NCBI GenBank assembly: GCA_000708835.1
Contig: DF237348.1
Coordinates: forward strand, 21,639 to 85,638
Origin: Klebsormidium nitens
Lineage: Eukaryota; Plantae; Klebsormidiophyceae
Length of the DNA stretch: 64,000 nt
Direction of reading: 5' to 3'
Positions 10,220 to 64,000 of the stretch are shown one piece after another; the first letter of the stretch is position 1; each line of letters opens with the position of its first letter. A model generated the notes under the pieces. That model searched no databases. It saw nothing but the letters and a program-made list of their open reading frames with translations, and was not told the origin of the DNA. The position numbers and the translations under genes are program-made.

Positions 10220-10249
10220 AGGTGGACTTTCAAGCTTGAAAGTCCACCT
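10220..10249. repeat. 30-bp perfect palindrome AGGTGGACTTTCAAG/CTTGAAAGTCCACCT
   Basis: Self-complementary on direct reading. It abuts the right end of the MITE. Confidence 0.9.
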
Positions 10250-10698
10250 CTACGTGGTAGTTTGGTACCTACATACCGTACCGTAATGATGGGCTTTTAA
10301 TGGTAAACAGATTATCTTGAGGACCGTAATCATTGACGATGTCTGGAAGCCACTCACAATAGGTACCGGTACTGTCACAGTATTACTGTGCAGTGTGCAG
10401 TCACCAGTGTGCACTGTGCACTTCTCTGTGAGAGGCTGAGCCTGAGATCAACTAGGCTGTCAAGACCAGTACAAACCTAAGAAACTGAGTCTCGACACGA
10501 TTTCGGCAGCCTGCAACAGGCGTGCAATGCGCTGCATTGATTGATCAGTGCATGAAGCATTGCTACCTAGTACCAATTCGGATGGCAGTGAAGCTGGGGT
10601 GCAGGGCTTTTAGAAGGCAAGAGAAGCTGCAGGAGCGCGGCTAGCGTCGCAGGATCAGCGGAGCCACAGGAGCGAGAGCTAGCTAGCAAATCACAAGT

Positions 10699-40333: not shown

Positions 40334-43300
40334 ATGGAGGCCGTGGCCTCTCCGGCCCTGCACACCCAGGCAGCAGCTGCAGGGTTCGGACAGAGGACGC
40401 ATGGTACGCACGTGCAAACGCAGGTTCGGACACAGGCCGCCCTGCTGCCTCGGCAACAGAGGCATCCAAAGCTCCACAGCTTTGGCTCCGCAAAAAGCAT
40501 TGCAGGCCAGAAAGTTTGTGCAGAGTCTGAGGGGTTTAGGAGGGATAGAAAGGGGCGGGGGCATGCCAGGGCAGCGGGGACGCAAAGTCCGACAAGGGAA
40601 AGGCCCTCAGTGAAAGAGGCGGCCGAGAAGATCGTAGGGGGTCTAGGGGGCGGGCTAGATGAGGTTAAGCTGGATGAGGTAGCGGGGCAGGTAGCAAAGG
40701 AGACGGGGAGCGAGAAGGCGCAGATCAGTGAGTTTTTGAAGCGGGAGTACAAGGCAGGGTTTGTGACTGACATCCAGTCAGAGAGGATTCCGAGGGGGTT
40801 GTCAGAGGAGACAGTCAGGACTATCTCGGCAAAGAAGAACGAGCCGCAGTGGATGCTCGACTATCGCCTGCGGGCCTACCGCCAGTGGCTGAAGATGGAG
40901 GAGCCACGCTGGTCGGACAACAAGTATCCCAGGTAAGCTCAATCCTCATTTCTTTCCCACAGCTCACCTTCGTATTTTAGAGTTCAGCACTCTGAAAGAT
41001 TTCTTTCTATCTTGTCGTCGCTTTGAGTTTTTTTCTGCTGAAGATTTTGGTAATGGTGGCTGGCCCTTTACAATCTGTACCTTGTCTTGAAGCAATCCTA
41101 CTCTAACATAAGTGTCTGGATGAAGATCCCACATGGACGACGCTCCTTTTCTTTAATTGGGTGAGCTCTATAACGGGCTACAAGGGTGAAGGAAAGGTTG
41201 TCTGGCGTGCTCCACTGCGTGTGGCAGCTACGTAGTTGTTTGAATCGTATCGTAAGGAGTTTGTGATTTGCATAGTATTGAGGCTTTTGCTTATTCTTAA
41301 AGCTGCCTTTCACAATTGCAAGGCTGGTGCAACATTGAGATTAACTAAATGCTGTCGCATGTAGTAGCTCCATTGCAGGAGTGCTTGGCAATGTGCAGTG
41401 TGTAGCAGACATTGCTTGCTTTCAGAAACTTTGGAGATCTGACTTTCCGCACTTCGATGTGCAGAGGAAATAGCTCTGCATATACTGGAGTTACCAACTT
41501 GTCCTTCCAGTATTTCACATGGAGTGATCGAGCGAACCCTACTTCTAGCTGATTTCCTTCTCTATACCATCATTTTGCACACGTCCCGAAAGGAGACAAT
41601 GCTGTTCGTCTAGTTTGTTGTCTAAGTGCGCCGGTTGCTTGAATTCTCCCGAGCATATTCTGTTGCTGGTGGTGGCTCTATCTTGAAAAGGTGCACTGGT
41701 GTCCCTGAAAAATCATTGAATTCAAGATTGCAAGTATCTCCTAATGAGCTGGGCTCCTTAAAGTAGAATCCAACGTCCTTTTTTGACCCTGGGTGCTTAA
41801 TAGCATCTAGACGCTGGCAAGCGAGCCTGCTCCGAGCTTGTTCTCTGGAGAACTATTCACCTGTGGCCATTGGGGATTCCTTGTCTGCCTCATCCTAGTT
41901 CAGGGTGTCATTCCCCCTCTGCTTATGGTCCTTTGACCAGCCTCGGTTCGCCTGCTCATTTTGCCCCATCCTACAATTACAAAAGAGAGTCTTCATGGTG
42001 TTCTGCGTGAAGGCTCACAAGGAGGACATGAAGGCTCTTCTTCACAATTGTCTGCTCCCTTTCCTAGCCCTCTGATGGTCCCCCCGCCCTCGTTTCGCCC
42101 CTGCATTTGCACAGGTTGTCTACCAAGGAGCTCTGCAGTTGAGATCCATGAACCGGCATTGCAGCTCCTCGCCCCTAGATTGCTGAGTGAAACTACTTCT
42201 CATTGAGGCAGAAAAGTCCAAATGAAGAACTTTTAGAGCTAGTTTGCCTTCACCCCCTCAAGCCCCATGACTCAATTGTCCCCTTTTACCAGCTTCTATA
42301 TTCATATTCTGAGGTTTAGGAGCTACGCACAGACCATGGCAGAATGCATTGTCAGTTTTCCCCCCTTGCTCTATCTGCTGGCCACACAATTTCCGGCCAT
42401 TAAATTGGCTCTCCCTTTAGCCCCTGCTCGTTTCAACCACTCTTGTGTGCAGGTTGTGTAGCAGAGAATAACGTATCATTAAAAGGGGAAGAAGAGAATG
42501 CTGTGCCATTTCAATCCTTCAATTGTTGCCTGCGGACTCGTATTTGCATGTATGCAGGTTTGATCACAAGGACGTTGTACACGGTTCCAAGCCACGTTGA
42601 TTGGGCAGCTGCCTCTTTTTTATTCCAAAAGTTTTTGTTGCAACTACTTTGCGACGGCATATCTTCCCTACTTATTTCACCCCCCAAAAAGGAGACACTA
42701 ATATCCCCCCATTTTCCATGCAGGATTGACTATCAGGACATTGTGTACTATTCCGAGCCCAAGAAGAAGGACGTCAAGGCGAGCCTCGACGAGGTGGACC
42801 CCGACCTGCTCGCGACATTCGAGAAGCTCGGCATCCCGCTGTCTGAGCAGAAGCGCCTCTCCAACGTCGCGGTTGACGCCGTTTTCGACTCCGTGTCCAT
42901 CGCCACGACGTTCCGCAAGGAGCTGGCGCAGGCGGGCGTCATCTTCTGCTCCATATCCGAGGCTGTCAGAGAGTACCCGGATCTCATCAAAGAGTACCTC
43001 GGCAGCGTCGTCCCGCCGGGCGACAACTTCTTTGCGGCGCTCAACGCGGCGGTCTTCTCGGACGGCTCCTTCTGCTATATCCCGAAGAACGTCGAGTGCC
43101 CGATGGAGCTCAGCACGTACTTCCGGATCAACGATTCGGACACCGGGCAATTTGAGCGCACGCTCATTGTCGCGGAGGAGGGCAGCAAAGTCAGTTACCT
43201 CGAGGGGTGCACGGCGCCGTCGTTCGACACGAACCAGCTGCACGCGGCGGTGGTCGAGCTGTACGCGCACAAGAACTCGGAGATCAAGTACAGCACGGTG

Positions 43301-44854
43301 CAGAACTGGTACGCGGGCGACGAGGAGGGGGTCGGCGGGATCTTCAACTTCGTGACCAAGCGCGGGCTGTGCGAGGGCAAGAACGCCAAGATCTCGTGGA
43401 CGCAGGTGAGAAATCTGTTTTACCAATTGTGTCTGATGAGGGAAGAGCAATAGGGAGGCGGCCAAGAAGGGCTTCTCAATCTGTCTGGTTAGGTTTCAGC
43501 AGTCTCGTGTGTTTGTACACACGCATGTGTGGCGGTTTTAGGGGCTGGCGGGACACTGAAGGAACCGGTCAAAGGGATAATACAGGGGGGTCGGATTAGA
43601 AGGAGTGTGGCAATCAACAGCCATCACGTGCTAATTGTGTGCTAGCTCTGGCTCAATCCTGCTTCTGCATGTCGTCAGCATGTCGTCAGGCTTTTGAATG
43701 TGACAAGTGGTGGGCGCCGGGGCGGGCTACCCCTGCTCCGCTTTCGTGAGTGTAGTCATTGAGGGCTACTCAATCTGCTTCTCTCACCCTCTTCTCTTAG
43801 ACCGGAGTAAGGCAGCGAATCCGGTTCTTAACCCTTTCCAAACCCCGCTTTTTAACCCAGGTCGAGACCGGGTCCGCCATCACGTGGAAGTACCCCTCCG
43901 TCGTCCTCAAGGGCGACAACAGCATCGGCGAGTTCTATTCGGTCGCGCTGACCAACAACCGGCAGCAGGCTGACACCGGCACCAAGATGATCCATGTCGG
44001 CAAGAACACGCGCAGCCGCATAGTGTCAAAGGGCATCTCCGCCGGGAACTCGGTCAACTGCTACCGGGGGCTCGTCCAGGTGGCGCCGACGGCGCACGGG
44101 GCCCGGAACCACTCGCAGTGCGACTCGATGCTGATTGGCGACCAGGCGGGGGCCAACACGTACCCCTACATTCAGGTACGGAAAAGATGGTCAACTTCGA
44201 CGGGTCGAGTATGAGGTCTTAATCCTGGCCCTTGATTTTGGTCTTGATCGTGGCCTAGACAAGGAGGGGTTTGCGTAGAAGTTTCTGGTCGTAGCTGGTC
44301 GCGTTGGTTGCCAGATTGAAAGGCAACGGCTTCCTCTTCCTCACTTGTATGGAGCTTGTCAGGTTGAAAAGTAGGTTTGGATATCTGTGACTGTGCTAAG
44401 CAGCTGCCGTGCGGAAGAAGATTCGTCTATGCACATGCACCAGACCGCAATGTATCAGCACTCTTGAGTGCAGATACTTGTCCGACCCTCCGACTCACAA
44501 TCCTGAAGCTCTTTGGATGCTCGGAAGTCGTGTGGCGTTTCTTCAATCCTGTCTGCTATTGTTTATCTGGTTGACCACGAGCTTTGCAGACCAATCAGAA
44601 GCAAGCTGGCTGATTGTGAAACCCGTTCTCTACAGGTGAAAGACCCGACGGCGCGCGTCGAGCACGAGGCGAGTACCTCCAAGATCGGGGAGGACCAGCT
44701 CTTTTACTTCCAGCAGCGGGGCATCGAGGCCGAGAAGGCCGTGGGCATGATTATTAGCGGCTTTTGCAGGGACGTGTTTAACGAGCTGCCACTAGAGTTT
44801 GCCGCCGAAGTTAACCAGCTGATGAGTCTCAAGCTGGAGGGCAGCGTGGGATAA
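40334..44854 (+). CDS. SUFB: Plastid Fe-S cluster assembly scaffold SufB (NAP1/ABCI8), 4 exons (40334-40932, 42724-43405, 43860-44175, 44636-44854)
   Basis: [10 protein letters not shown]...[130 protein letters not shown]. Confidence 0.97.
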
Positions 44855-45818: not shown

Positions 45819-46969
45819 TCAGTCTTTGTCAACCTTGCGTTCCGGTGGTTTTGACGACTCTATCTCCGGCCGCTTTGAAGCCGACCTGCAAAAAGGATAG
45901 AATAACAAACCTTTCAGACACAAGATACCTTACTTCTACATTGCCCTTTTGAATTAGCCTTGCGCCGCAGCAATCTCCAAGCTCTTGCTTGTATCAGAAG
46001 CTGGATATCTAGACTCGGTTGTAGGAGCGGCTTTATTCGTTAGATTGCTTGGAGCCATCAACGAGCCACTCTGCTTCATCAGTCAACAGGTCAACAGCCA
46101 TCCAGCAACTTATTGGAAGGTCAATTGTTCAGCAATGCGTCTATTGAAGTGTCGCCCAAGTCTTTGCCCGCCCACTGGGCTTCGTTGCAAACAAAGTCGT
46201 TATTGCGGATTCTTCGCACAGGGAGAAGTGTTGTTTTAGAGGTTTGATAAAAGATCGTATCTTCAGAAGCCTCGATATGTGAACGTTGATAAGCTTCTTT
46301 GTTTGAGCAGCTTACACTCCACTGCCTAAACCACATACCAACCCAGTTCTTTTAGAAGTATCGACGCCTTCACCGAACAATACCAGAGTCCATCAATAGA
46401 ATGTCAGAGGATTTATAGAGACCCCCAAGCCTGCCCCACGCCAGCTGCACAACATACAACTCTGATTGTTGTACTCCACTTGGTTAGCAGTGCCTACTGA
46501 ACCTTGTGGATCTTAAACCCTTGTTTACGGGGCAGCTAACCGGTCTCCAACTCAACAAAAGGGGACCTACGAACCACTGACCAGACTTTCTGCACCGCAC
46601 CTCCTCCCAAGACAACTAAAAGAAGGGCGTTGGGGGGCTGGTCCTCCTATGTGACCATTTGGCCGAGGCTCCGCTCTGGCGGTCACCTTAAAACATATAT
46701 AATTTCGAATCCGCAGCGACAGTCAGTCACATCGCCTAATCTGTGTGTCGTTGGAGAGCCACATAGGGGCACGCCCTCCTTAGACCTCCTGAGATGCCCA
46801 AAATCACACCACTTACTTTTGAGCTGCTGCGCTCTCGGCCTCTAGCCACTCCCTTACGCTCCGCACGTTCCGCCTCAGGATCGAGGCCGTCTGCTTGACA
46901 TCGCCTCTTAACATCAGGGCGACCGCGCCGACGGCGGCCACTGTGATCACAAAGTTTGTGATAGCCATT
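45819..46969 (-). CDS. Small conserved streptophyte single-pass membrane protein (~72 aa), 2 exons (46969-46817, 45885-45819)
   Basis: MAITNFVITVAAVGAVALMLRGDVKQTASILRRNVRSVREWLEAESAAAQK/SASKRPEIESSKPPERKVDKD*. The GTAAGT...TGCAG intron joins in phase. It resembles an uncharacterised land-plant family. Confidence 0.75.
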
Positions 46970-48991
46970 TTCTTCTCAAACAGGAACCTGCTCAGAAGAA
47001 AGCGGGTATGCAAGGTAAGATGGTAAGCACAGATTGGGGGCTAATAGCCGATTGTATTCCATTGTTGCTTAATCACAGAGGACCTGGGTAGCAACTCTTT
47101 AGACTGTCTACGCCAGACAGAAAATCAACCACCTGATCAGAGTGTACTAGTATTGTAATCGTGATGAAGGACCTGTTTCAAGGGCAACTCGGAGGATTGA
47201 GGGGGGTCGCCTTTTCACATGCCGTGAGTCAGTTGGAGCATCAGAAATCATCTTTCTAACCAGATTGAGTGTTCCAAAGTGCAATTGTCCAGTGTCCGAT
47301 CTGAAGCCAAGTTGGTTGTCGAAAGAACCACGTCATCCCCTATATCTCAATGAAAGCGAACCCAATGGTCATAGTAAACCTCTGATGCGCCCCGGCGGCA
47401 GACTCATGAAAGCTGCGGCAGTCGAGCGGCGCCTGTGCTTTGCCTCGGCGCCCATACACAACAAGTGTCAAAAGTGTGCAGCACTTCCAACACATTCACG
47501 TTTCACACTTGCTGTATCGTGCAAATGCTGCGCGATTGTGGGCCTCCAGAGACCAGAACCATTCCAAATCTGGGAAATGATCTGGTGCTCTGTGCCTAAG
47601 CTCTACGGGTACCCACCTGACGCTGCACGCGCTTGATTGTCGTCGCCCCCCTGCGAGTTTCTGTCGTGATATCTGTCGCGAAATCGTGCCCCAGGGAAGA
47701 AGGTCTACCTATGCAGATTCAACCTGAAAACAAGGACTAGCTTCAGCAAGGACAACCGCTTTCCGTGTCCCTTTTAATACCTCCATTGGCATCATCCCGT
47801 TCCATTGCGCATGGCATTGACGTTCTTCTGTTTCTTCTTTGAAGCCTCGACTTTAAATTTTGTTTTGAGCTCAAGCTGACGAAGGCGCGCGCTAGGCAAT
47901 TGCCATTCCGGCCGCAGTGACTTGCGTTCCGTACCGGAATGCTTGGAGTCCGGTCGGTCGACGCTTCTCATACGTTGCTTCCGGACTCGGTGCGCGGAAC
48001 AGACTCGACGGATCAAAACCCTCTGCCGAATGATCCCTGTGCGTCCGTCCGTCTGGCGGCCCGCGCGCCGCGCATATATAGCGCGCACTGCGGCATGTAG
48101 TAACGTATACGTCAACCGTAATCTGAGGGAATTGAAGGGGAGCAAGGGCACAAGCGACATGCAGCGATTCGGGCCCTCTCGCTGTTTCAACGCGCATGGG
48201 CCTTTGAACTGAACCTACAGTGATACAGTACCTAGGTTTTCTAGCAAAAAGAATGGCGGGCCAATTCAAGAACTTCAACATAATCATGACTATCATGGGA
48301 GGAAGCGCCGTATACCTAGGAGCTACCATGGCAATGGGACAAAGCAAAAGGGCCCTGGCGCAAAGCCCTGCCAAAAGCGTCGGAATTCTTTACTGCTGAA
48401 AGGAAAGCGATCCACAACAGCGATTCGTTCACGACTGCTGAAACTTCAGAGACGCTTCTCGTATTGTTTACGAGAAGCACCAGCAGAGGCACGCAATGAG
48501 TAACCCACGTCGCCTCCAGACTGCGCTTGAACGGCTCACTACCCACTCTCTTTCCAATCAGATATGCAGGAAGACGGCAGGGAGGACCTCAGGAGGCAAA
48601 GAGCAGGTGGAGTCTGAGGGTGAAGAATGAAGGTATGTTACAGCATCTAGGGCTAGAAAAAGCAGTCGGTTTCGCATGCTTCGGCCTGTTGGCTTCACAT
48701 GATTCCTGTTGCTGTTGCCGCATATGTGCTCATTCTTCGTTGCTTCATCAATTCACATAGAAGCATGTAGATGAATCTCGCATGCTTCAAACTTTTAGTC
48801 CGTCCCCTTTATCCAGGCAACGAAGGAATGATTGAGTGGGCAAGGGCAGTCGTCAAAGTCTGGTGGTCGAGCGAGAACCGAGTGGGTTGGTGAAGTGTTT
48901 ATTATGAAGATTCACTAGTTTATAATTGTTCCAGAACCCGTTCACTGTAGGCTCCGCCGGATTGGCCTGTACGTTGAAACGGATGCTTAAC

Positions 48992-49267
48992 TCAATCCCG
49001 TAGAAACGAAGTATGCTTGCGAAGATGAAAGAAAGAAGGACTTCGATTCGGGTGAAGGACTCCGCTCGATGTGAAGGACTCCGCTCGATGTCCGAGATCG
49101 TTCATCATGTCCGGCCCAAAGTCTCCAGCCGCATATACGGTTTTAAGTTGCCTGATGTAGACAGACACCGTTGAATCTGATCTATTCGGCGGAGCTCCAC
49201 GGAGAACCTTATCAGGAGATTGGACCTTCAGTTTTTTGCGTATCTCTGCTTCGAAGCTGGAATCCAT
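48992..49267 (-). pseudogene. Truncated second ORF resembling the N-terminal domain of virus-type tyrosine recombinases
   Basis: RSDSTVSVYIRQLKTVY parallels RTESSTEQYLKGIHLLW of the neighbouring ORF. A 19-bp tandem duplication (49052-49089) shifts the frame. Confidence 0.35.
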
Positions 49268-49291
49268 CGCCGTGAAACCGCCTCGTTGTTA

Positions 49292-50145
49292 CTAATCTTT
49301 ATAGATATTTTTTGTGAGATACAGACGTCTTAAAGTCGATCTGGATTGAAGCGCTTTCCATTGTACTGGATCTTACCCAAGAACATTGACCAGTTGCTAG
49401 CGGTCATAACCGTCTGCGGCTGAGTGACAGAAGTCAAGAAGTAATCTCGAGGTATCAATCGAAGGGTTCGATGAAGATACTTGCTCAGCATCTTTGTTAG
49501 AGGGATTCGATCCCCGTCTTCGAAGACGAGTTTGTAATCTCCCTTGCGTTGTGAGGTCTGCAGCAAATAGCTTGCACCCTCGATCTGTTGGCCCTTCCGC
49601 AGGATTGGAAGCTCGTGCAATTTTACCCGACGACGATGCTCCTTACTCAGAAGCATATGCCATTCGAGGACGAGATGCCACATACAGATCTTCACCTCCT
49701 TAGGAGTGAGATCTCGATTCATGTCTTCGAGACTCAACTGTCTGACCTTGCGTGCGAGCTTCTTTCCGAATGTTTCGACCTCTTCAACGGTCATCTCTGA
49801 TGTGGCGTCCGAGGTCTTGGTCTCAATCTTTCGTTGAGCGGACTCCTTCAGAGCCTTGTTTTCCTTCCGAAACGGCTCATAGTAGGTTTGATAAGCCTCC
49901 GCATAACCGAGTTTGCGGCAAATAGCAAGAAAAGGGGCTAAGCGAGTACGCCTGCTTCCAGGGTTATCATAGCGCTCTAGAACAGCTGCAACGATCTTCT
50001 GAGCCTTACTCTTTATCCACGAAGGGTCCTCGGGCATTTTATCCTCGAAAACCATGTTCCATAGAAGATGAATCCCCTTGAGATACTGCTCTGTGGAACT
50101 CTCGGTCCTAATCCCATCAGCTAAGACCTTCCGTAGAGCATCCAT
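49292..50145 (-). CDS. Tyrosine-recombinase-like protein (Polinton-like-virus/NCLDV type), catalytically degenerate, one frameshift near 49330
   Basis: Intronless. N-terminal STEQYLKGI...W...KIVAAVLERYDNPGSRR. C-terminal SYLL...IPLTKMLSKYL...YFLTS...MTASNWSMFLGKI..GKRF, then LRRLYLT in the -1 frame, comparable to the LRHxYIS box. No catalytic Tyr segment follows. Confidence 0.5.
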
Positions 50146-50299
50146 AGTTATCACCCGTCTACGATGATGCAAGAACATATTTTTATAATGTCTTCCATTT
50201 CGCAACAAGTTATTTCAAAAAGGTCGGTCACAATAAAATGACATCGAAACCTCTCCTAAACGATTACTTTTTTGAAACTGCGTGCGGGGGGCCGAAAAT

Positions 50300-50327
50300 T
50301 GTTGAGAAATCTCGAGATTTCTCAACA
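50300..50327. promoter_or_regulatory. 28-bp perfect palindrome in the AT-rich divergent intergenic region of the virus-like module
   Basis: TGTTGAGAAATCTC/GAGATTTCTCAACA is self-complementary. A second palindrome, TAACTAGTTA, lies at 50331-50340. Function is unknown. Confidence 0.6.
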
Positions 50328-50515
50328 GAATAACTAGTTATTTAAAAAGCACTTGACACTTTTTCACTGTCTCTCCGCCTGCGTTTCACACCATATACAA
50401 TGTATAATATTGCTTGTAGCAGAGATTGTTGAATTTGCATAATATGAAATGCATTAGGGGGCGGGATTATTTTGTTCGAAACTATCATGACAAGTTGCAT
50501 CAGAGGCCAGTCGAT

Positions 50516-51013
50516 ATGGAATCCACGAAACGAAGCTTTCGGGTGATTGCTGCCTACGATGCGAAGGGGAATGATGCGCTTGCTCTGGTGAAGGATACAC
50601 GACTCGAGATCGACGCCAACAAGGGGCGCGTCTGTCAGGCAGGAGCCCGCGCAGGGTCCCAACTCTTTCGGACACAGAAATGTCAGGGGAAAAAGGTTTC
50701 CCTTCCACAGAGGGTGGTGGTCCTTATAAAAGAGACTACAAGAGGTTCAACAAATAAAAAGTATGGGTACTCCGTCGAGATCGGTCCGGTCAAGAAGTGT
50801 GACCGCCCGACTGGTTTGCCATTTCAAGGGACGTTTCAGAGCATAGCAACAAAGATGGAAGTCGAAGACATCGAGAATATGAAGCTCCGAAAGAAGTCTT
50901 CTAAGACGATTAAAGCCACCCAGAAGCCCAAGGCTAAATCCACCCGGAAGAAGCCTGACCCAGCAAAGACAACGGAATCAGTTGATTCCAATTCCGATTC
51001 AGACTCGGATTGA
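50516..51013 (+). CDS. MC1-like (archaeal/giant-virus non-histone chromosomal) DNA-binding protein with Lys-rich and acidic tail, 165 aa
   Basis: Intronless. SFRVIAAYD...GRVCQAGARAGSQLFR...VVVLIKETTRGSTNKKYGY...RPTGLP follows the MC1-family pattern (QAAxKA...IxLRETTRGSxKKxYxY) of giant-virus proteins. Confidence 0.65.
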   Translation: MESTKRSFRVIAAYDAKGNDALALVKDTRLEIDANKGRVCQAGARAGSQLFRTQKCQGKKVSLPQRVVVLIKETTRGSTNKKYGYSVEIGPVKKCDRPTGLPFQGTFQSIATKMEVEDIENMKLRKKSSKTIKATQKPKAKSTRKKPDPAKTTESVDSNSDSDSD

Positions 51014-51557
51014 TTGCGTCATGGAGATCCGGTCCTGAGTCCACCGTTTGAGAGCGCCATGTGGCGGTCAGGACATTTGGTGTCTTAGTCAGAAGTTGCC
51101 TTCAATGGATTGCAGAGTGTAGCATGGCGACTCCAATCAACTTTCCGATTTCTTGCCACGTCAGCAAATTCGAGTCCGGAAGCTAGTACACATGCCCGCC
51201 GATCTAGAAAACACATCGATGAGCACCATGACACGCGCATTTGCTTACTGAACTTGATTGCGTGCTAACACCCTACTCATCAAGGACTACACAATTTGTC
51301 TATCAGAAGTGCTTAATCTCAAGACGAAATATTGCTCTTCCTAGCATGCGTAAGGGACGCGAGATCAAAAACTACTCCTATCCCCGCTATTGTGAACATG
51401 CTACCAATGGGATTCCGATTTGGAACGAGACAACAAGCAAGATATAAACTGGTCCACACCATCCTAGAACACTTTCGACTCATCGCCAAATGCCATCTGC
51501 AATGCGCGCACCACGCACACCACAAAGATAGCCTATTCAAATCGCTCGACTTGCACC

Positions 51558-54500
51558 TCACACTCGAGCAGCATCGAGCGCGTGCTCGAATCCCATAACC
51601 GCCAAGAGCTCCCTAGCCATGGCTGCCATCTGAGGAGGGTACATATGCCGCCCAATCTCGTTTTTGTCGTACTTGAAGTCTCGGTCAACCACTTGCTCCA
51701 GGAAATCGAGGGCGTGGATCGGCTTCGGCCCGAAGGTTTGCAAGAACTCCTCGCTAAGGTATGGCACGTCGTAGAACCGTGCCAGCTGAAACTTCTCCAT
51801 CTGCACTAACTCCCCCTCGCGATGTTCGTTTCTTTGGGACCGCCGTTCAATGTCGGCGAACTGGGCTTGCGAGATGTTAGGGGCGCTGATCATCTGCTCC
51901 AAGAGATACTCGCCCCCAAAAACCCCTTCTTCCGAGGGGACCGGGTTCACTTCGACCGCCTCTTCGTCTACGTTCTCGACGATGACGTGGCCGTCCGCCC
52001 TCAGCAAGTCTGTGAACTCCTGGTAGAAATGCGTCTGTCCGTTGAACATCTCCTTCTCGTTGTGAGCGAGAAGACGGGTTATTGGATGCACACAGTTCAG
52101 CCCGCCCCTTAGATTCTGGTTGAGGAACCACTGGTAGGTCTCTTCGACCCCCAGCCTTGCCTTGCTACCCGACCTGCTCATCTCCATCAACGACCCACCC
52201 ACTGACGGCCCCGCGGGTTCGGCGGGCAACCAGATGCCCTCCTGGAGATAGCACAGGACCCGTGGATTCTCCAACTTCCGTACACGGCCCTTCATCTGAT
52301 TGAGCCCCCGAGGGTGGGTGCTCTTCAGGCAGATGTACAGGAACATCTGGTGAAACCAGTCCTGGTTGAAATCCACGCCTGCTTCGACCGTGGGGCTGAT
52401 GATTACAAGCTGTTTCCGCCACTGCCTGTTCACATCCTGCAACCCTCGTTTGACTGCACCGTCCGAGTGCCGAGTGATGATGAGATCTGATCGCTCTCGA
52501 CCAGACCGCGCTCCTCGACCGCCGCCCCCAACTCTCGCACTTTTTCTGAGGACATGCTCACGATATAGACGTTGCGCCCAGCCCCAAGCGCCTCGAAAAC
52601 CGCCCCCTCCCACTTGACAAGCCCCTCGGTCTTGCCCTGAAGGAACTCAAACTCGAGGGGCCTCTCTGGAGCATGTTTGTTGACCACCACGGGGGAGCAG
52701 GATATCTCGTTCATCGTTAGGAACTCAAACGTCCGTTGCCCCAAATGCCCGTCCAGGAAGATGATCCGCCGCGCTCTTTTCATCAACTCGATAAGGAGCT
52801 GAATGACTCTGTGCCTCTCGCGAAGCGTGTCCGCCGACAGATGTGCCAAAATCGACTCGCTCTCGTCCAGGACGAGCAGGTCAAACGAGGGGGCGTCCTC
52901 GTCGTCTTCAGCAAGCAGCCCGGGCAAGCTGTCAGTTTGGACGATGACGCGGGGATGGTGTTCCCGGTCGGCGAGGGGGTGGATGAAGCGGTCGGGGCCG
53001 AGCATACGCCCATCCGCCTGCTTGAGATCTCCGTAGTGGGAGAAGCTCTGGTGCTTGCCTGCCGCGTCGAGAGCTTGCGTGCAGCGATAGGTGATCATGG
53101 AGACCTTCTTGAATCGTGAGTCTTCGGCTAGAAGAGCCGCAAGAAGGGTGCTCTTGCCGCTCCCCATGGGGCTCCTGATCGACAGATTTTTGTACCGGCC
53201 CTCCAGCCACCTGCACAAAGAAGTGAGATAGAGTCTTTGGATCCGTCTTCCGAAGCCGGCCGACTGGCAAGTGATGCAGCAATATTCCTTTCCTAACATA
53301 TGGCCTACACCTTGCAGATGGCAGAAGACTGGATTCCTTATTTCCCATGACAAGGTGTGGGCCCGTTCAAATGTTTTAGCCACTCATTTCAAGCCACTCC
53401 AAACCCACGAATCTGCTTCTGAACCGGCCCAGCAGCCACTTCTCCTCACAGCTATCCATAGAGGACCTGGCCTACACCTTGCAAATGGCAAAAGGCTGGA
53501 TTCCTTATTTCTATTGACAAGGTGTGGACCAGAGGCAGGGCACGTGCCCAAAGTCGGGTTTTGCCAACCTCGGCCCGGTGTCCGGTCGGGCTTGCTTATG
53601 GCCTACACCTTGCAGATGGCGAAAGACTGGTTTTCTTACCAGCATGAAAAGGTATGGCCCCGTTCACCAAACCCTGAAAGTGGGGGACCAGCGACAAAAC
53701 AAAAGGACTCCACCAGAATGTCAAGTCGACCATTAAAACCGAGACTGAAACCGAGCGTGTACGAACTCACTTGTTCACGATGTCATTGAAGACGACCTTG
53801 TCCGTCAGAGGGCGGACCCCGGCGCGAATCAGCTGCAGGTCCATGGGCGCGGCAGCCAGCGGGTGTCGATCCAGGTACTTCAGGTCGACCTCGACAGCAC
53901 CATCCTTCCAAGTTTCGTTGTCCACCCAGTAGGGCCCAAGGTACTTGGCCGGCAGGTTCTTGCAGCAGACACCCGTCTCCAGATCGACCCGCTCGCTGCT
54001 GCACACCGCGAACACGGCGTTCCTCTCGCGATCCGCGACACAGAGGATGTCCCGCTCCCCGGCATGCACGTGCCCCGAGTAGCACGGCTCGCTCCGATCG
54101 TGCCAGCTGAAGTTCAACGCGTTTGCCGACCCCCTGCGGTACGCCGTCGGGTGCAGTTTCTGGATGAGCTCCGTGCACCGTTGTACCTCATACATGCTCG
54201 CAGCTCTGGGGTTTAGGTGGCCTGGATTCTCTGGCCTCTCGCGCGCGCGCACCGCTCGAAACACGACGTCAGGGACCTTGATCATTTGAACGTGGTCATC
54301 GAACCAGGTGATGCAGGCGTCCGCGTACGGCTTGCTCTCGTCCAAGGGGATCAGCCGGCTCTGAGGGTTAGAGGGTTTGGAGCAGTAGGGGAGTCGGATC
54401 CCCCGGTTCCTGGTGTAGACCGACTGGTCGATCAGCTCGGCATAACGGTTGGGCAAGTGCTGGCCGAGCTTTCTCGCGAGATGCCCCGCTCCTTGAGGGT

Positions 54501-57500
54501 CCGCCGGGGGCGCCAGGTTGGAGCGGTAGACAAACTGGGGGGAGTGGGAGGAGACGACTAGGTGCAGGCTGAACTTGCCGCCCGGCCCATAGTCGCAGGG
54601 GATCCAGTTGAAGGCTTCCTTTGGAAGCTCGATGCCGTACTCCGAGCGGAAGATGGCCGTGATTTCCTCCTCAAAGGCCTCAATGACCGTTTCGAGGGAC
54701 TCTCCCTCTGGCAGGCCCCCGTCTCGTTCCAGATCCAGGTACGGCTTGCAGGGACACCCCGCTTTGATGGCCTCTTCCAAGTGAGGCTCGCCGCGCAGTT
54801 TGGGGTAAGCCGAGGGCCAATCCGGGTAAGACCCGAACTCCCGGGAGGGACGCAGGCGACGGATCTCGACCTGATGGCCGAGCACTTCCCCGTAACGACG
54901 GCAGCAACCCTGCGGCCCGTTCTTCGCGTCCTGGTAGTCGACCTTATCGTCGAACTTGCGCTTGGCAAAGAAGAAGGCGCCCAGCTCCGTCTTCTTGATG
55001 GTCAGCAACTTCCCGCCGTGCTCGCTGTGGACCACAATCTCGCCGGGGCGCAATCGAGGGTCCGCTGATGAGGCATCCTGCACGAAAGAAACCAGACCGA
55101 GTCACTGCTGGGAGACGTACAGCGGCCGCGGGAATCCGTACTTAGAGAAGCGCTGTTCTGAAGAGAGGCAGAATCTCATGTCTTTACACCACAGCAGCTG
55201 GTGCTGGTGCCGAATCTCACTAAGCTTGACCGCAATGATAAAGGGGTTTGCGTCAGGGTAAGGATGTTCCGAGAAGCAGCCTTGGGGCATTCGACGATCT
55301 TCGTCAGATAGACAAGTGCGGTGATACGAAGTCGATTGGCCGCCCCTGCTGAAGGGGTTCATAGAAGAATGGCCACTTCGAGGATTGAAATCCGGGCTCA
55401 CTCACTACTTAGCATGGTCCAGGTAGGTTACGTAAGCTCATGTCCGTTGACAAGGTACAAACGGGATGAGAATGTTTTCTGCACAATTGGGACTTACAGC
55501 TTCTACTAAAGCCCAGGTCGCGGATTGAGAAGGCGGGTCGAAGTCGGGGGTTGCGCTGGGCTCGCCAGCTTCTGCACCGGGGGGCAGGCTTGCTGCGCTA
55601 CTGAGATGGTCGGAAGGGATCCCTTGGAGCCGCTGCCGTACATCTTGGCCCCTCTCAAGTTCCTGCAAAATCGCGAATGCTGGAATCAAACGCTCACAAT
55701 CGAGCCTGCCCTCGATTTTCAGAACACCGCTTGCTGTGGCCTACACCTTGCAGATGGTAGAAGACTGGTTTCCTAATTTCTAATGACAGTGTGTGGACCA
55801 GATGAGGACCAGAGGCGGGGCACGTGCTGTGGCGAGGGGCAAAACTTATGGCCTACACCTTGCAGATAGCGCAAGACTTGAATTCCTTATTTCCATTGAC
55901 AAGGTATGGACCAGAGGCGGGGCACGTGCACACAGTAGATTTGCCAACCGCGGCGTGCGGTCGGGCTTGCTTATGGCCTACACCTTGCAAATGGCAAAAG
56001 ACTGGTTTCCTTATTTCCAATGACAAGGTGTAGACCAAGTTTTTAAAGGAAGAGACGGGCCCTCACCCACCATCTGCAATTTCCACGAGCTTGCATTGCA
56101 TGGTTCAGCCGGGCTTTGTAAGCTCAGGTCAAGCGAAGAGTTTGACGGAATCGAATGCCTTTGCACGGTCGGAACTTACATCTCCAACTGAAGCGCAGGT
56201 CGCGAGTCGAGAACGCGGATCGAAGTTGGGGGCTGCGCTGGGCTCGCCAGATTCTGCAACGGGGGACCGGCTTGATGCGTCACTGGAACTCTCTGCAGGG
56301 ATCCCTTGGAGCCGCTGCTGCGCATCCTGGAGCCTCTCGAGTTCCTGCGTAACGTGCACACTGGATCTAACACTCGCATCCGAGCTTATCCTCATACCGC
56401 TTGCTTTGGCCTACACCTTGCAAATGGGAAAAGGCTGGGTTCCTTATTTCTAACAACAAGGTGTGGACCAGAGGCAAGGCACGTGCCTACCATCGATTTC
56501 TGCCAACCGCTGTGTGGTCGGGCTGGCTTATGGCCTACACCTTGCAAGTGGCAAAAGGCTGGGTTCCTTAATTCTAATGACAAGGTGTGGACCGGAGGCG
56601 GGGGAGTGGGCGCCCACCACGCCCATCCGCGCTCTGGCTCGAGCTTGCGTCCTAGTCCGACCCAACACGTCGGACCCAAGGCTGACACTGATTTTTGATG
56701 CAGTGCTTGACCGTGTATGCCTAACCGCTCATGATCAGTCCTGACACCCGCCCGACCATGCATGCCAAGCCCGCATGCCTGACCTTTAAAAGATCTATGA
56801 AAGTCTCTTAACAACGCAGCATGTGCGTTCTCTGGTACCGCCAGCCTCACCTCAGCCTGCCCAAGGGCCTCGTGTGGACTGTGCTGGATCGACTGCCGCA
56901 TCGCGCTGTCGAAGTGCCTGAAATCATAGGAAGCATATGGGTGAAAACATCAGCGATTATCGTAAAAATTGAGACGATTTGCTGTCTCGAGGGACGTTTC
57001 TGCAGCTGATCAGTCGACCTGCACCCGCACGCACAGACACGACGAGTCATTCAAGAGCAGAGGCTCACTCGCCACCCTGCCGGTCCTCCTCGCCAACTTC
57101 GGCCACTGTCACGTCCATGCCCGAGCGCTCCCGCAGGGCCTCGGCCGCGACTGCCACTTGGGCGGGTCGATGGCCCCCTCCCTGCACCTCAGGCATCCGC
57201 CGCATCGTCGCCTGCAAAACCAGCGAGTGCGTCTTTTCCATCCGATCTCGAAGGTAGCGGCTTTCTCTGCCTACGTCTAGATTCTGCTTTCTAGACGATG
57301 CTTCGACATCGGAGTCAGATGCAGGTAAACAGCAGAAAACAGATCAGCATTTTGGGGAGACCAGAGGCGGGGCACGTGCCCACCGTCGGTTTTGCCAACC
57401 GCGGGGTGCGGTCGGGCTTGCTTATGGCCTACACCTTGCATATGGCGAAAGCCTGGTTTCCTTATTTCCAATGACAAGGTGTAGACCAGAGGCTCATGCC

Positions 57501-60500
57501 TACCATAGCCATCCGGCTTGAGCTTGCGTCCAAGTCTTACCCAACATGTCGGACTCAAGCCTAATACTGATATTGTTGCACTGCCTGACCCTGCATGCCT
57601 GACCCCTCATGATCGGTCCTGACATCCGCCTGGCCCTGCCTGCCAAACCCGCAAGCCTGACCGTTGACGAATTATGACTGTCTCGAACAATAGCACGTGC
57701 TTTTCTCTTGTAACGTCAGCCTCACCTCAGCCTGCCTGAAAGCCTCCCGTGGGCTGTGCTGGACGGACTGCCGCACCGCCTTATCGAAGTGCCTGCAACG
57801 ATCGGAAGCATGTGGGTGATAACCTTGGCGATTAGCGTGAAGGACGTTTTGCTGTCTCGAGTACGTTTCTGCAGCTGATCTGCACCCGCACGCACGGACA
57901 CGACGAGTCATTCAAGAGCAGAGGCTCACTCGCCACCCTGCCGGTCCTCCTCGCCGACTTCGGCCACTCTCGCGTCCACGCGCGAGCGCTCGCGCAAAGC
58001 CTCGGCCGCGACTGCCTTTTGGGCGGGTTGATGCAGCCCTCCCTGCGCCTCAGGCATCCGCCGCGCCGTCGCCTGCGAAACGAGCGAGTGCGTGTTTCTG
58101 TCCGATCTCGAAGGTGGCGACTTTTTCTGCCCATGCCTAGCTTTTGTTTTCGTAAGATGCTCCAATATCGGAGTCGAATCCAGATGAACGGCAGCAAGCA
58201 GATGAGCATTTAGGGGAGATGTGCACGGAAGGCTGCATTTGGCTGCAAGGGATTCCAACCGCAAAAACGCAAAGCGACAGCACTGACGAGTGCGCCCGCG
58301 AGGGATGCGAGTCGCACTCCTATATCAGCCGGATGAGTTCGCACCTCCTGCCTGTTTTGATGGGGCCTCAATCCCTCTAGAGTCCGGAAATGAGCCTCAC
58401 GAGCCGCCCAGATCTCCGCCCGAGCCGCCTCGTCCATCGGGGGAGGAATCGGCTTCGCACGCTTGCTGTGGGTGAAGGGAGAAGAAGAATTCGAGTCAAT
58501 GACGGGCCAAGACTCCTCAGCCACAGGCCTGCTACCCTGCAAAAAGCCGTCTGCACCAGGTCCCTATGTCGACTCGAGAGGCCTCTCTGTGCTCAGTGAC
58601 CCAGTCAAACTGATTCCTAACCAGGATCACTGGCAAAAGTCGAACCCGAGATGACGAATGAGGGGACAACGAGCTTACTGTGACGTCTTCTTCACCGGTT
58701 GACCAGCCTTTGGCACCACCGATCTTGATCCCCCTGCTGCTTCAACCTGGGGGGAAGCAATATGGCGGAAGGGTGGGCAAGTATTGAAGCTGTGCACGGC
58801 CACTGCCACGAGGAAGACCTAGGGCTCCCTTATGAGGTTGTCGAAAAGCGGCCGGTCAGGATCGAGCGAGACGTATGCAAGCGCCTCTACGCTAAGGAAA
58901 TCGTTTCACATCCTATCCTCCTACTGACAGTGAACGGTCTCACCCTACGAGCGAGCTCTTTTCTGGAACGAGGAAGGGTAGTTCTACAACCACGAGGGCT
59001 GGTTGGAGTACCTAATTTCGCACTGCTCTGCCGTGTGGGGAGTGAAGCTGAGCGGGACATCGAGTGGAAGGGGGCGACAGAGCCTCGACTGGAGTCGAGG
59101 GCCGTATCATCCTCGAGATGCCCATTTTCTGCACAAGAATGCGAGTGGACTCACCAAAGGTGTAGGCTCCGTAGCAGCAGAGCGAAGCTCATCGGCAGGA
59201 TGCGGAGGAGCGGGGGAAGGGCCCGGGTTCTGCATGACAAGAAAAAGCCTAGGGTCTTAGGAGCAACCGGCATGGATGTGAGGCAACTCTAGAGGATAGA
59301 ATATTACTGCAATGCAAGGGAGAGGCTCGGAAGTGGTCAATCGAAACCCGAGAGTAGCAGTGTCGTTCGCATTTCGAAACCTTCCTGGACAAGAACCCGG
59401 GACACAGACGAGGCACCTTTTCGAAGCGTTTACCTTTGCAGCACTTCAAATGCGTCAAGGACACTGTCTAAGTCTGGCGCAGACGACGGCTGATCTAGCC
59501 TCCGGCATCGAGAATCAGTAAATGGTCCAACTCACATGCGGCTCCCCAGCAGCGGACCCCGTGGACTGCTGACACACATCATGACCATCGCTTGTTGCCA
59601 CGCCAAGTTCCTGCACATGAGCGTCGAGCGAAATCCCCTTTTGCATATGGCCACACCTTGCAGATGGGGAGAGACTCGATGTCTGCACCGATGACGATGT
59701 GTGGACTAGTGAGAAAGAGAGAGAAGAGCGAAATGCCCATCATCGGTTTTGAATATCGCAAAGTGTGGTCGGGCTTGCTTGTGTGGCCTACACCTTGCAG
59801 ATGGCAAAAGCCTGGATTTCTTAATACCAATGACAAGGTCTAGACCCGATTCTCAAGAAGCATGACGCATGCCCATTTTCGGCTCTGAGAACCGCGGGCT
59901 TTCGTCGGGCTTGCTTATGGCCTACACCTTGCGATTGGCAGATTAACTTGGTTCCCTATCCCCAATGAAAGGTGTGGACCCGATTTTCGCCCACCATCTG
60001 CGCTTTGGATCGAGCTTGCATCGCCTGGTCCAAACAGATTTCGTAAGCTCAGGTCGATCGACAAGGTGCAACACTGGAAGTTTGACGAGACTGAGTGTCT
60101 TTGCACAATTGGGACTTACATCTCCAACCAAAGCGCAGGTCGCCGAATGAGAAGGCGGGTCGAAGTCGGGGGCTGCGCTGTGCTCGCCAGCTTCTGCATG
60201 GGGGGGTGGGCTTGCTGCGCTACTCAGATCCTCAGCGGGGTTCCCCTGGAGCCGCAAGCGCACATCCTGGCCCCTCTCGAGTACCTGCATGACGCACACA
60301 CCGGACACTCACATTCGAGCCTACCCTCATATTCCGCTTGCTTTGGGCTACACCTTGCGGATAGCAGGAGACTGGAATCCTTATTTCCAATGACAAGATG
60401 TGGACCAGAGGCGGGGCACGTACTGTGGGGAGGGGCTCGCTCATGGCCCACCTTGCAGATGGCAGAAGACTGAATTCCTTGTTTCCAATGACAAGGTGTG

Positions 60501-61660
60501 GACCAGAGGCGGGTACGTGCCCACCGTCGTTCTTGCCACGGCTGTATGGTCGGGCTTGCTTATGGCCTACACCTTGCAAATGGTAAAAGCCTGGGTTCCT
60601 TAATTCTAATGACAAGGTGTAGACCAGAGGCAAGACTTTCCGCCCAGCCTGGATTGCATTTGCAAGCTCAACATGAAAGTCGCGATGAGCCTGTAGAGGG
60701 CGGAGTGCCTAAGTTCTCTTGGATATTGCAGGCCACAAGAGCTCCTCGAGCATACCAACGAGCGCCTCACATGTGAGAATGGTTGCGGCGTTGGCACGTG
60801 CTCCTCCTCTGCCTCCTCTAACTCTTGAGAGAGATTCGGACGGCGTCGCTTCCTCTCGAGCGCCCGCCCTGTTAATACCACCCCACCAATGTCCTCCTCG
60901 AGACAAGAGGCTCCTTCTGGGCAGCGCTCGCCTTCACCGTTGGAGGACTGCAAAGACGACACGCAACAAGCCTGATGGGTGTGGACTTCATTCCACCATC
61001 AATCAAGCGTCACCAGGCGCCTTCCTGATGAGAATCCAGGATTGCTTCAGCTGCGAAGCACGCGTGCCTTAGCGGCACACCAGATTTAGCAACCCAACGA
61101 AGTCGCATCGAGACAAATTGCGTTGGCATCATGTTGCTCCTGTCTCTCAGCTTTTCGCAATCCAGTTCGTACCTTGCGTTTGCATTTGATTGACGGTGAT
61201 ACAGGAATCGGCTCTCTAAAAGCGCTGTTGGTAGACCAGTTGGCAACCGGAGAGGTGGGTGAATCACCCTGTACAGCACAGCAAACCCAGAAGTGGCTTG
61301 ACAGCAGAAGACACTGGTCAGTTTTGCATAAACGGGCACCAATGTTGCACGAGGCAGTTGCAAGAGAATGGGCAGACACCCTGGTGTAAATCTCAGACAC
61401 AGACTTTCAAGCCAACATAGTGCGTGCAGGTCATTTCGTAGGACCCAGAAGCCCACTGGACTGGGTTGACGCTAACCTCATTGTTGGGAGCCCTGTAGAA
61501 GCTTGCACCTTGTATGCTGCCAGAATCTTGATCGTCAAAGAAATCTTGTAGTGACTGTCCAGACTGAGATCCATCGACAGATCGATCAGCATACTCAGCA
61601 CCTTCGATGTCCTCTCCTTGGGTCCCTTCTGATTCTGACACATCACTGTACACATGAGCA
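51558..61660 (-). CDS. Multi-exon AEP primase-polymerase / UL9-type SF2 helicase fusion with a long repetitive N-terminal arm; one frameshift at ~52484; 5' end not found
   Basis: The AEP exon (55077-53771) has KPYLDLE, KFSLHLVV and LIDQSVYTRNRGIRLPYCSKP. It splices in phase (AA/G) across intron 53770-53211 to the helicase exon: SPMGSGKST, ITYR, FDLLVLDESES, IIFLDG, IISPTVEAGVDF, NQMKGRVRKL. Upstream exons have canonical GT-AG ends and compatible phases. Confidence 0.8.
53302..60625. repeat. 15 same-orientation copies of a ~62-nt hairpin in six clusters
   Basis: Consensus GGCCTACACCTTGCARATGGCARAAGRCTGGDTTCCTTATTTCYAATGACAAGGTGTRGACC. Starts at about 53302, 53469, 53600, 55738, 55850, 55975, 56408, 56532, 57426, 59649, 59785, 59919, 60345, 60445 and 60564. 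Confidence 0.93.
55498..60284 (-). repeat. Duplicated exon cassettes: A x3 (165 nt each) and B+C x2 (143+67 nt)
   Basis: A at 60284-60120, 56344-56180 and 55662-55498. B+C at 58072-57930/57792-57726 and 57211-57069/56917-56851. Lengths are identical, splice sites are intact, and flanking intron sequence is also duplicated. Confidence 0.88.
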
Positions 61661-62902
61661 GAATACCTGTGAGCATCTCAGCTTGCACTATACGTGAGTG
61701 CATTCAGACCTAGGCAGAACTAGACGCAAACATTTCCCCGCTGATCCTGCAACTCCGCAACTCTGCAACTCAAGTAGAGATTGACCACTAGTATGATATT
61801 TGGACCTGTTTTTGAAAACACATGCCTTTATAGTCACTCCGCTCTCATCACGCCCATCTCCCAGTCTGCAATTCTGATCCCAATCACTTTCCAGCCCCAG
61901 TGCTGTCCAGAAAAGCACTCACCTATCCCAAGGCAGGTGCATGTCGGAAGACATGGCAGCTCAGCTGGCATACGCAACCAGCCGCAACCAGCCAGCTTTA
62001 TGTGACCAGAGCTCCGTCAGGCTCACAGCCTGATCAGCTTCAGCTGCTAATTGTCAGCATCAAGTCTGCGCTTCACAGGGTTGACTTAGCTTTAGCCTAC
62101 ACTAGGTCTCAGTAGCATAAGACTTACCATGATGGCAGGCAGTATCTGGATTACAAAAGGACCATCGACTCTAGGCGGCGTGTCTGTAGGCCATACTCGC
62201 AGGCGTTTGGAAAGATGAGTGAGGATTGAAAAGAAGGGGAGTCCCGGAAAAGCTCATCTGCAAATTAAAGGATTGAAGCAGAAGATTGCCCCTTTACATC
62301 CCATGAGCACGCGAATTCAGTCGAACACTGTGCATGATCCAGTAAAGCTGCAGCCTCTGCTTTGTTGGCAGGCTGCTGCGTTGGCAGAAGCTTCCTAACC
62401 CTTCCAAACTGCTGCGTTGGCCGTCCGAAAACTGTCACCCTTTAGAAGGCAACCAACAAAGCGACAGGGCTGAAGCTGCTTGAGTCTTTGCTGCATTGGC
62501 CTGAGTTTCCAGAATCTGTTTGAGCTGAGTGTTCAGAGCTTCCAATACCTGCTGCTTGCGTTGGCCTTGTCAGGGCCTGATTCAGACTGCTGACTCAAGC
62601 AGGACTTTCGCCTTGCACTGAACGCCCTTTGTGTGCGCGCCAAAAAAAAAGCTCCCGCAGTGTGCTGCCAGCTGGACGCTTCGGATGCTGAAGTCGAGTC
62701 AAAGCCAGTCTTCTTGCAAGACCCTTCTTGCGCGCGCTGCTCGCGATCGGACGGCGAAGGGTCGTTCGGGCGACGAAACCTTCTGGCCTCGGCTTTTGCA
62801 ACCAACATCATGATCGAAGTCGAGTGCGAGGGCTGAGTGGCAGTGTGGAATGGCTCAGGCGCCGCATTCACTGGTCTCTGCGGGACGTCACTGGTGAGGT
62901 GA

Positions 62903-64000
62903 ATGGCGTCTGCCGCAGTGCTCTTCAAAGTGGCTGGGGCAAAAACTTTATGTTCGCGCGGGCAGGCAGACATTGCCCCTGCAACGCCCCAGCGATTCGC
63001 TTTCAGGACACTTCCTCCATCTCTGTATGAGGGATTGAGGCTGGGCCGGTTTCATTCCGACTACAGGGTGGGGTCAGGATTGAGGCGCTTCTCGCCGAGG
63101 GCAGAGATTCCCCGGGAGGGAGCAGAGTCTACCGGAAGTTCCAACTTGGTTGACAGCGTGCCTCAGGCTGAACAGGTCAAGGATGAGGCACAGGCTCTCA
63201 AGTCGAGCATCAAGCGTGTGGAGAAGGAGATTGACGATGTGAAGAACCAGATTAAGACTGCTGCGGCTGCAGGCAAGAGCACAGAGTTCTTGCAGCGGGA
63301 GAAGACCGCGCTGCGGCAGAAGGAGGCCGCGCTGCGGCAGAAGGAGGCCGCGCTGGAGCAGCGACTGACCGCGCTCGTGCAGGCGGAGGTGGAAAAGTTG
63401 AAGCTGCAGCAGACACCAGGTACGTCTCCCGTCGTCTTACGCATGGAGAGCGGTCTCCTTGGAGCAGCCCAGCAAACCAGCGCACAGATGTGAAAAGACC
63501 ATGAGCGGCGCTCTGCTGCCAATGTTGTGCTGCAGGCAATTCCCCTGCTGCTTGTCGATGTTTCGCAAAGAGAGTGGTAGGGCACACCGCACAGAGGGTA
63601 TTCTATCTGTCTTTGCCTGCAGTTCAGGTGTCTGCTCAATGAGCCATGGCAATCTGTCTCGATTGTTGCTGCTTAAGAAGGGTTTTTGTATCTGTGTTTG
63701 CCTGATGTTGGTGTGTTGCTCTGTGGGTCATGGCAACATGCAGGCGGAAAGGTTTTGCGGTGCAGAGAAACTACTTCCAACCTCATAGCCTGCTTAGCAT
63801 TTGCAGTTGGCTTATCCAGTGACTGCGTGTGGAATGCTGACAGATAGCTTCTGTCGTGTGCAGCAGCGGGGATTCCAGACCCTGCAGTCTTGGGTAAGTC
63901 TTTGTACCTGTCTCCACCTGTTGGCGCTGTGTGCTGAAGCGCTTGTCGCACCTGTCAGCATTGTCTTCTATTTGATCGCTGTTTCAGGTGCTGTTTGACT
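62903..64000 (+). CDS. First exon (62903-63419) of a coiled-coil protein with a transit-peptide-like N-terminus; presumably continues past the window
   Basis: MASAAVLFKVAG... then IKRVEKEIDDVKNQI...LQREKTALRQKEAALRQKEAALEQRL, including a 21-nt tandem repeat. The exon ends at the CCAG/GTACGT donor. Confidence 0.55.

Follow-up and report, generated by a model that had tools for sequence, protein, structure and literature searches.

What kind of element sits between ordinary algal genes in Klebsormidium nitens, where a primase-helicase gene, a gene for a small basic protein and two recombinase-like genes lie around an AT-rich palindromic spacer? The cluster occupies the right-hand part of a 64,000-nt stretch of contig DF237348.1 (assembly GCA_000708835.1), called here the window. 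A sequence-only reading had suggested that it could be a compact, self-replicating integrative element or a reduced giant-virus relic, consisting of an AEP primase fused to a UL9-like SF2 helicase, an MC1-like protein and two tyrosine-recombinase-like genes, with no capsid. The four genes and the spacer between algal genes are all real. The set is neither compact nor intact, as the AEP-UL9 gene has 16 introns and a frameshifted helicase, and both recombinase open reading frames (ORFs) lack the catalytic end. Since ORF B is cut at codon 58 and the helicase is frameshifted, this copy is not a working self-replicating element; it is non-autonomous, and cannot move by itself. The reading favoured here, for and against which the case is about evenly balanced, is that it is one dead member of a family that derives from a virus and is moved by a tyrosine recombinase.

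The genes of the cluster

The order is recombinase B, recombinase-like A, palindromic spacer, MC1-like gene and AEP-UL9, the last two standing tail to tail:

49035 to 49091: 19-nt tandem repeat at the ORF B break point
49094 to 49267, minus strand: ORF B remnant, the first 58 codons of a tyrosine recombinase, the remainder missing in this copy
49330 to 50145, minus strand: ORF A, 271 aa, a recombinase fold that stops at the H-x-x-R box and lacks the catalytic His/Trp and Tyr
50146 to 50515: AT-rich divergent spacer, a candidate origin or recombination site, holding perfect palindromes of 28 nt (50300-50327) and 14 nt (50329-50342)
50516 to 51013, plus strand: putative MC1-like basic protein of 165 aa, counted from the shared Met; upstream ATG at 50444
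51088 to 53210, minus strand: last AEP-UL9 exon, with the UL9-like SF2 helicase and 3' untranslated region; one-base frameshift at 52483
53771 to 55077, minus strand: AEP (PrimPol-type) exon, motifs I, II and III intact
55498 to 61954, minus strand: 15 small exons for a 576-residue acidic, low-complexity N-terminus, partly built by exon duplication
53300 to 60630: 64-nt repeat in 15 copies with 14-nt imperfect inverted ends, all within six of the 16 AEP-UL9 introns

Over 58 residues the ORF B remnant shares 91% identity with the N-terminal part of P0046, a 358-aa relative which, on a reading of its motifs, carries R202, K247, R318, H344 and Y353, with the His of H-x-x-R replaced by Thr. Within the ORF B family the catalytic set was found in P0046 only and not in the window copy, and the catalytic end is absent in three of the four ORF B relatives. 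A tblastn search of the window with P0046 recovered no part beyond the remnant, which breaks off at 49093; to the left of this point the contigs of other copies continue differently, as read from loose contig ends. P0046 matched no Pfam recombinase family at E <= 1; its motifs may resemble those of OLV11-like tyrosine recombinases.

Only 62 bases separate the stop of ORF A from the start of ORF B. The structural model of ORF A (pLDDT 84.9) aligned to residues 38-295 of Cre (Z 9.3, root-mean-square deviation 8.4, 196 residues aligned), and a Foldseek search with it returned Cre, XerD and lambda integrase at E 0.007 and up. In the BFVD its closest folds belong to giant viruses and virophages, with nine giant-virus rows at E <= 0.001, and its nearest Atlas clusters are viral. 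Profile comparison, which matched it to the ORF B family at 89.7% and E 1.8e-6, shows ORF A to be a paralogue of ORF B. The catalytic set was not recovered in it, as the model ends at Cre 294-295 and the first Arg is not aligned in the profile match. Relatives of ORF A number 17, at 44-96% identity. Among the 36 proteins of its family, 26 reach the H-x-x-R end motif and all 26 stop there, with the end residue constant across 44-93% identity; the other ten end earlier or differently. The family search spanned 149-475 residues, hence a 350-aa form would have qualified as a candidate. Conservation of the stop in 26 of 26 relatives reaching the motif rules out a recent nonsense change, and we infer that ORF A is a kept, non-cutting recombinase paralogue. 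Both of the genes described earlier as tyrosine-recombinase-like are therefore so, while neither window copy is able to cut. A protelomerase reading of ORF A was rejected, as a single Atlas row (0.93; 113 of 256 features) stood behind it, and protelomerases reached Z <= 4.5 against 9.3 for Cre. Prediction of a complex of recombinase B with protein A scored 0.02. In the three RNA-type runs, which come from three studies and whose RNA label is a guess, no listed run being on record as RNA, no contig covers 48269-50536, where the DNA run continues; this is a weak hint that the recombinase genes are silent.

The spacer, at a GC content of 0.376, is the most AT-rich part of the window, with 0.08% of 370-nt intervals at or below this value. 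Its 28-nt palindrome is perfect and was equalled in none of 1000 shuffles of the spacer, its fold has a z of -2.84, and it is repeated together with ORF A. As a perfect 30-nt palindrome also stands at 10220-10249, upstream of an intronless 548-aa frame (10687-12333) without a Pfam match, a palindrome of this kind is not unique in the window.

The basic protein encoded beside the spacer has nine relatives at 61-86% identity and a low-confidence model (pLDDT 54). Foldseek with this weak model returned giant-virus rows, six of them named MC1 or non-histone chromosomal protein and one reaching E <= 0.001. Pfam, PDB sequences and the Atlas gave no match, and a VIA search with the model gave a best Z of 5.0, with MC1 not among the matches listed. 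The earlier identification as MC1-like is thus moderately supported, the giant-virus MC1 rows speaking for it, and the low-confidence model and want of a sequence-level match against it. In Mimivirus a protein with an MC1 domain condenses DNA, and the MC1 of archaea introduces a sharp bend into it (10.1101/2024.02.22.580433).

The AEP-UL9 gene runs on the minus strand from about 62,400 to 51,088, in 17 exons separated by 16 introns, and so extends past the right limit of 61660 first assigned to the cluster. Its frame is open for 1,271 residues from a start codon at 61954 until the frameshift. All 16 introns are GT-AG: 13 splice joints, between 55076 and 61923, were seen in the three RNA-type runs and were absent from the DNA run (15 of 30 joints listed), and three further introns were placed from loose contig ends and homology. 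The primase gene here is still transcribed and spliced. Pfam Herpes_ori_bp matched the two helicase frames at E 1.5e-12 and 4.3e-6, and in the PDB a profile of relatives matched the origin-binding protein of herpes at E 2e-31 and human PrimPol at E 5e-10; the window AEP motifs align with PrimPol, the window sequence alone giving E 0.046. These matches bear out the proposed fusion of an AEP to a UL9-like SF2 helicase.

The frameshift at 52483 is real, because 449-nt contigs in all four runs, DNA and RNA-type, are identical to the window over it, and a 90% paralogue, one base longer at this site, is also present; an assembly error is ruled out. Motifs V and VI lie in the second helicase frame, whose stop at 51558 comes about 135 aa before the end of continuous intronless relatives. 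Gene calls P0051, P0053, P0058, P0059 and P0062 (58-94% identity) all end at the residue where the intron between AEP and helicase falls (five of 15 listed gene calls, the others covering different parts or running on), as do P0204, P0206 and P0208, while AEP-UL9 relatives of 1,050-1,150 aa are continuous. This intron is therefore old, and its sharing speaks for adaptation of the gene to the nucleus. A fast tree of the 108 of 160 rows kept by coverage, rooted at the midpoint such that no donor can be named, grouped five Klebsormidium-type rows in one clade (support 100, stem 0.68), which sits among proteins of 1,000-1,300 aa and apart from six IMG/VR giant-virus-type rows. A large group of continuous 1,000-1,300-aa AEP-UL9 proteins (P0063-P0141), at 30-42% identity, was seen on short contigs and not found in viral_contigs; its carriers may belong to a group of viruses or elements not yet described.

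The 64-nt intron repeat has no copy in the remainder of the window. It belongs to no Rfam family, and with none of 19 pairs compensatory it was rejected as a conserved RNA helix; a metagenome match to it (L018) lies inside a bacterial NRPS-PKS gene and is due to chance. Exon duplication may have left it as a by-product; alternatively, it may serve as a site for protein binding or be a very small non-autonomous element.

Copies, linkage and flanks

The cluster was expected to recur as a set at unlinked loci. Gene models on other K. nitens scaffolds, for ORF A (KFL_005140010, KFL_013000010), MC1 (KFL_011770020) and AEP-UL9 (KFL_012130020, KFL_005490050, KFL_005960050, KFL_011360010), confirm several copies. 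The X1 contigs give a summed depth of 340-480 over most of 49110-50420 (one bin 267), 120-200 over MC1 and about 100 over the helicase 3' end at 80% likeness, against 16-21 in the unique flanks, with up to 14 distinct contigs at one position of the repeated part; summed depth is not copy number, and X1-X4 are one sample, possibly that of the window. When contigs were paired, by base count only, an ORF A match apparently lay on the same contig in six of nine MC1 clusters and three of four ORF B clusters, and a 54,068-base contig apparently held ORF A, MC1 and the intact recombinase together. On one contig, position 50868 in MC1 adjoins position 51566 in the helicase end, with 87 letters on its short side, and a second, weak one (51017-51428-51448-51568) has 21 letters; the two joints differ in spacing and have diverged MC1 tails. 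The expectation therefore held for repetition, for the recombinase pair with MC1, and for MC1 with the helicase end in at least one copy, while the linkage of AEP-UL9 is weaker than had been assumed. The locus is not the single-copy, syntenic one with non-viral identities that would have spoken against a mobile element, being repeated and made of parts with viral affinity.

Silent changes make up 12 of 21 coding differences, against an expected share of 0.23-0.30 (p 0.0006-0.008), the differences being drawn from 40 of 534 rows with two adjacent changes in one codon excluded; like the constant end of ORF A, this speaks for selection. The cluster also recurs at 44-50% identity in other data sets. 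No related loci were found in viral_contigs with the AEP exon, the MC1 alignment, the intron repeat, P0046, P0067 or alignments A6 and A2, in metagenome_contigs with A2, in genome_contigs with A6 and A2, or in phage records with P0046.

The surroundings of the cluster include two further features:

40154 to 44854: SufB iron-sulphur assembly gene, an ordinary host flank on the left side
48565 to 48804: short low-copy repeat; a unique contig ends at 48594, and a contig of depth 51.5 covers 48565-48804 after 42 unlike letters

GC content at third codon positions (GC3) in the SufB exon, the host reference, is 0.91. Also to the left is a spliced host gene, where RNA-type contigs join only host exons (46985-47615). 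Over 45822-50145, exons of this neighbouring gene and the first 151 residues of ORF A are combined in one public model, P0028 (KFL_003990120), which matches the window at 99% over those residues and at 100% over the host exon 46816-46989; the combination is likely an annotation error. The family makes up about 2% of the scaffold whose gene models fused the cluster to host genes. On the right, 62903-64000 holds a gene in head-to-head orientation that encodes a transit-peptide-like start and a coiled coil; it is repeated (depth about 48), and a paralogue has RNA-type contigs that diverge left of 62812. Elsewhere in the window, 8031-8977 holds a telomere-like repeat, CCCTAAAA x4.6, beside a 306-aa frame without a Pfam match, which resembles the 3' part of a non-LTR retrotransposon, and an intronless longin and synaptobrevin frame (YKT6/VAMP-like) at 832-1362 is possibly a retrocopy.

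Mechanism and rival accounts

If the cluster is a dead copy of a mobile, virus-derived family, intact members could work as follows. Firstly, recombinase B, as preserved in P0046, would excise a circle and insert DNA, tyrosine recombinases typically using circular donors (PMC4642659). Secondly, protein A would keep the DNA-binding fold and bind the same sites, as an accessory helper or as a repressor. Thirdly, MC1 would bend DNA for the recombination complex or pack the circle. Fourthly, by analogy with herpes origins, the UL9-like helicase would open the AT-rich palindrome as an origin. Fifthly, the AEP would prime and host polymerases extend, the excised circle being copied in the nucleus. 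A bolder and more tentative proposal, which we think rather less probable, is that the family is a class of capsid-free, self-priming nuclear DNA transposons in streptophyte algae, with an active recombinase, a conserved dead paralogue, MC1 and an intron-bearing AEP-UL9 replicase. Joined to it, and equally tentative, is the suggestion that MC1 plays the role of IHF or Xis in phage integration and that AEP-UL9 fires from a herpes-like palindromic origin.

Several observations weigh against the cluster being one mobile unit. By base count, none of 20 AEP-UL9 contigs matched the 39 recombinase/MC1 contigs (for 13 of 150 listed AEP clusters), and the named K. nitens AEP-UL9 models share no scaffold number with the named ORF A or MC1 models. 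AEP-UL9 is less repeated than the recombinase/MC1 part (depth 21-46 at 90% likeness), and its GC3 is 0.75-0.81 against 0.50-0.56. No element ends, terminal repeats, terminal inverted repeats, target site or target duplication were found, nor any circles, with other copies represented by short contigs, and a replicase of 17 exons is unusual for a mobile element. The MC1 identification draws on a weak model, and the joints of MC1 with the helicase could come from an old segmental duplication rather than from transposition.

The strongest alternative, which we consider improbable but serious, is that the cluster represents one end, for replication and integration, of a larger endogenous virus that encodes a capsid, whether Polinton-like, mriyavirus-like or giant, and that the capsid part of this copy has been lost or lies beyond the broken left end. 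Within the window the earlier claim of no capsid stands: between 44,000 and 64,000 there is no further stop-to-stop frame of >= 200 aa besides those assigned; the small frames scanned gave no Pfam match and the window's long frames include no PolB, major capsid protein (MCP), A32 ATPase or VLTF3; and this copy (44-64 kb, left end broken) shows no major capsid, minor capsid, packaging ATPase or HUH endonuclease gene, the last being, with the capsid, a mriyavirus trait. Since the left end is broken at 49093, these missing genes prove nothing, and a family-wide absence of capsids is unsupported in a species reported with five PolB, six ATPase, six MCP and five VLTF3 genes, for which the D5 cell of the table in the same source is empty and could be filled by AEP-UL9 (PMC5294986). 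The nearest matches of all parts are viral, some mriyaviruses have an AEP-UL9-type helicase (PMC10962738), and Ectocarpus viral inserts include AEP-UL9 and, in another insert, a C-terminally truncated recombinase copy (PMC2373305). Set against this, the recombinase part seems, on a rough depth estimate, to be repeated beyond five or six inserts; the replicase has conserved spliceosomal introns, whereas endogenous Polinton-like viruses (PLVs) are described as intronless (PMC10120064); and 17 distant viral AEP-UL9 loci, found in one viral scan, had no MC1-like or recombinase-like match nearby, on narrow profiles from close relatives only.

Doubtful, and a little less probable again, is that two separate neighbours have been taken for one element: a 2-3 kb repeat of recombinase, recombinase-like gene and MC1, beside an older virus-derived primase-helicase family that the alga has kept, supplied with introns and transcribed. 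The differences in GC3 and repetition and the unpaired AEP contigs fit such an account, as do the host-like exon structure of AEP-UL9, the varied N-termini of its relatives, one paralogue model with a ubiquitin-like domain, and the different coding sequence upstream of ORF A in gene model P0027, on another scaffold. It is opposed by the one clear and one weak contig in which MC1 meets the helicase end, at unequal spacing and with diverged MC1 tails, and by the frameshift in the transcribed AEP-UL9 copy, which fits poorly with a conserved host function for the helicase. It is very improbable that every copy is a dead remnant of a single ancient viral insert, immobile in itself and multiplied through segmental duplication: the many broken members (ten of 36 ORF A proteins, three of four ORF B relatives) and the want of element ends agree with this account, but the intact recombinase P0046, the excess of silent changes and the recurrence at 44-50% identity in other data sets do not.

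Relation to known elements

A literature search, covering titles and openings with subscription journals mostly outside it, found no paper describing this gene set. The parts and the module idea have precedents; in that literature we found neither their combination nor the conserved dead recombinase nor the intron-rich replicase. Cryptons and Starships are eukaryotic DNA elements moved by a tyrosine recombinase, and to our knowledge their definitions include no primase-helicase or MC1. The family favoured here would share this mode of mobility; P0046 lacks a Pfam recombinase match at the threshold above.

On the content of this copy, the cluster is not a member of the PLVs, the mriyaviruses or the giant-virus inserts. 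PLVs and virophages have end modules of a tyrosine recombinase, a primase-helicase and inverted repeats (PMC11296320), and the defining genes of PLVs are those for capsid and ATPase (PMC4642659). As in these end modules and with the OLV11-like recombinases of the second source, a recombinase stands here near a primase-helicase and a palindromic stretch. In contrast to them, the helicase is SF2/UL9-like rather than SF3/D5-like; there is a second, cut-short recombinase, an MC1-like gene and spliceosomal introns, and this copy has no capsid, minor capsid or ATPase. The main text of a 2026 PLV survey does not mention UL9, MC1 or SF2 (10.64898/2026.06.19.733378). Mimivirus R8, ASFV F1055L and the mriyavirus SF2_hel fusions have the same order of an AEP followed by a UL9-like helicase (PMC10962738, PMC2373305), while the gene here differs in its 576-residue N-terminal extension, 16 introns, frameshift and own long-stemmed five-row clade. 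The giant endogenous viral inserts of K. flaccidum/nitens share the host genus, viral genes and several diverged copies, but are defined by PolB, MCP, ATPase and VLTF3, none of which is in the window (PMC5294986).

Tandem recombinase paralogues also occur in bacterial GInts and RIT elements (PMC5385486, PMC8138268). GinC, which lacks the first Arg, is a bacterial precedent for a partner without catalytic residues (PMC5385486); RIT elements are named in PMC8138268, where a dead subunit is not stated in the available part. Both are prokaryotic, with three recombinases and no replicase, and are likened to this cluster by the shared fold alone. The tyrosine-recombinase-rich giant repeats of Amoebidium resemble it as repeated non-capsid clusters in a genome with giant-virus inserts, and differ, in a comparison by description, in being intron-poor and in their Plavaka transposase flank (PMC11244446).

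What the finding means depends on the full element. Were it the end of a capsid-encoding virus, it would indicate an undescribed group of streptophyte viruses. The conserved, cut-short recombinase beside an active one would offer a simple system for the control of recombination by a dead paralogue. Were the full element capsid-free, the replication and integration module of a virus would have turned, in an alga related to land plants, into a nuclear transposon, its replicase gaining introns along the way, and a replicative route would be added to the short list of eukaryotic DNA transposon types.

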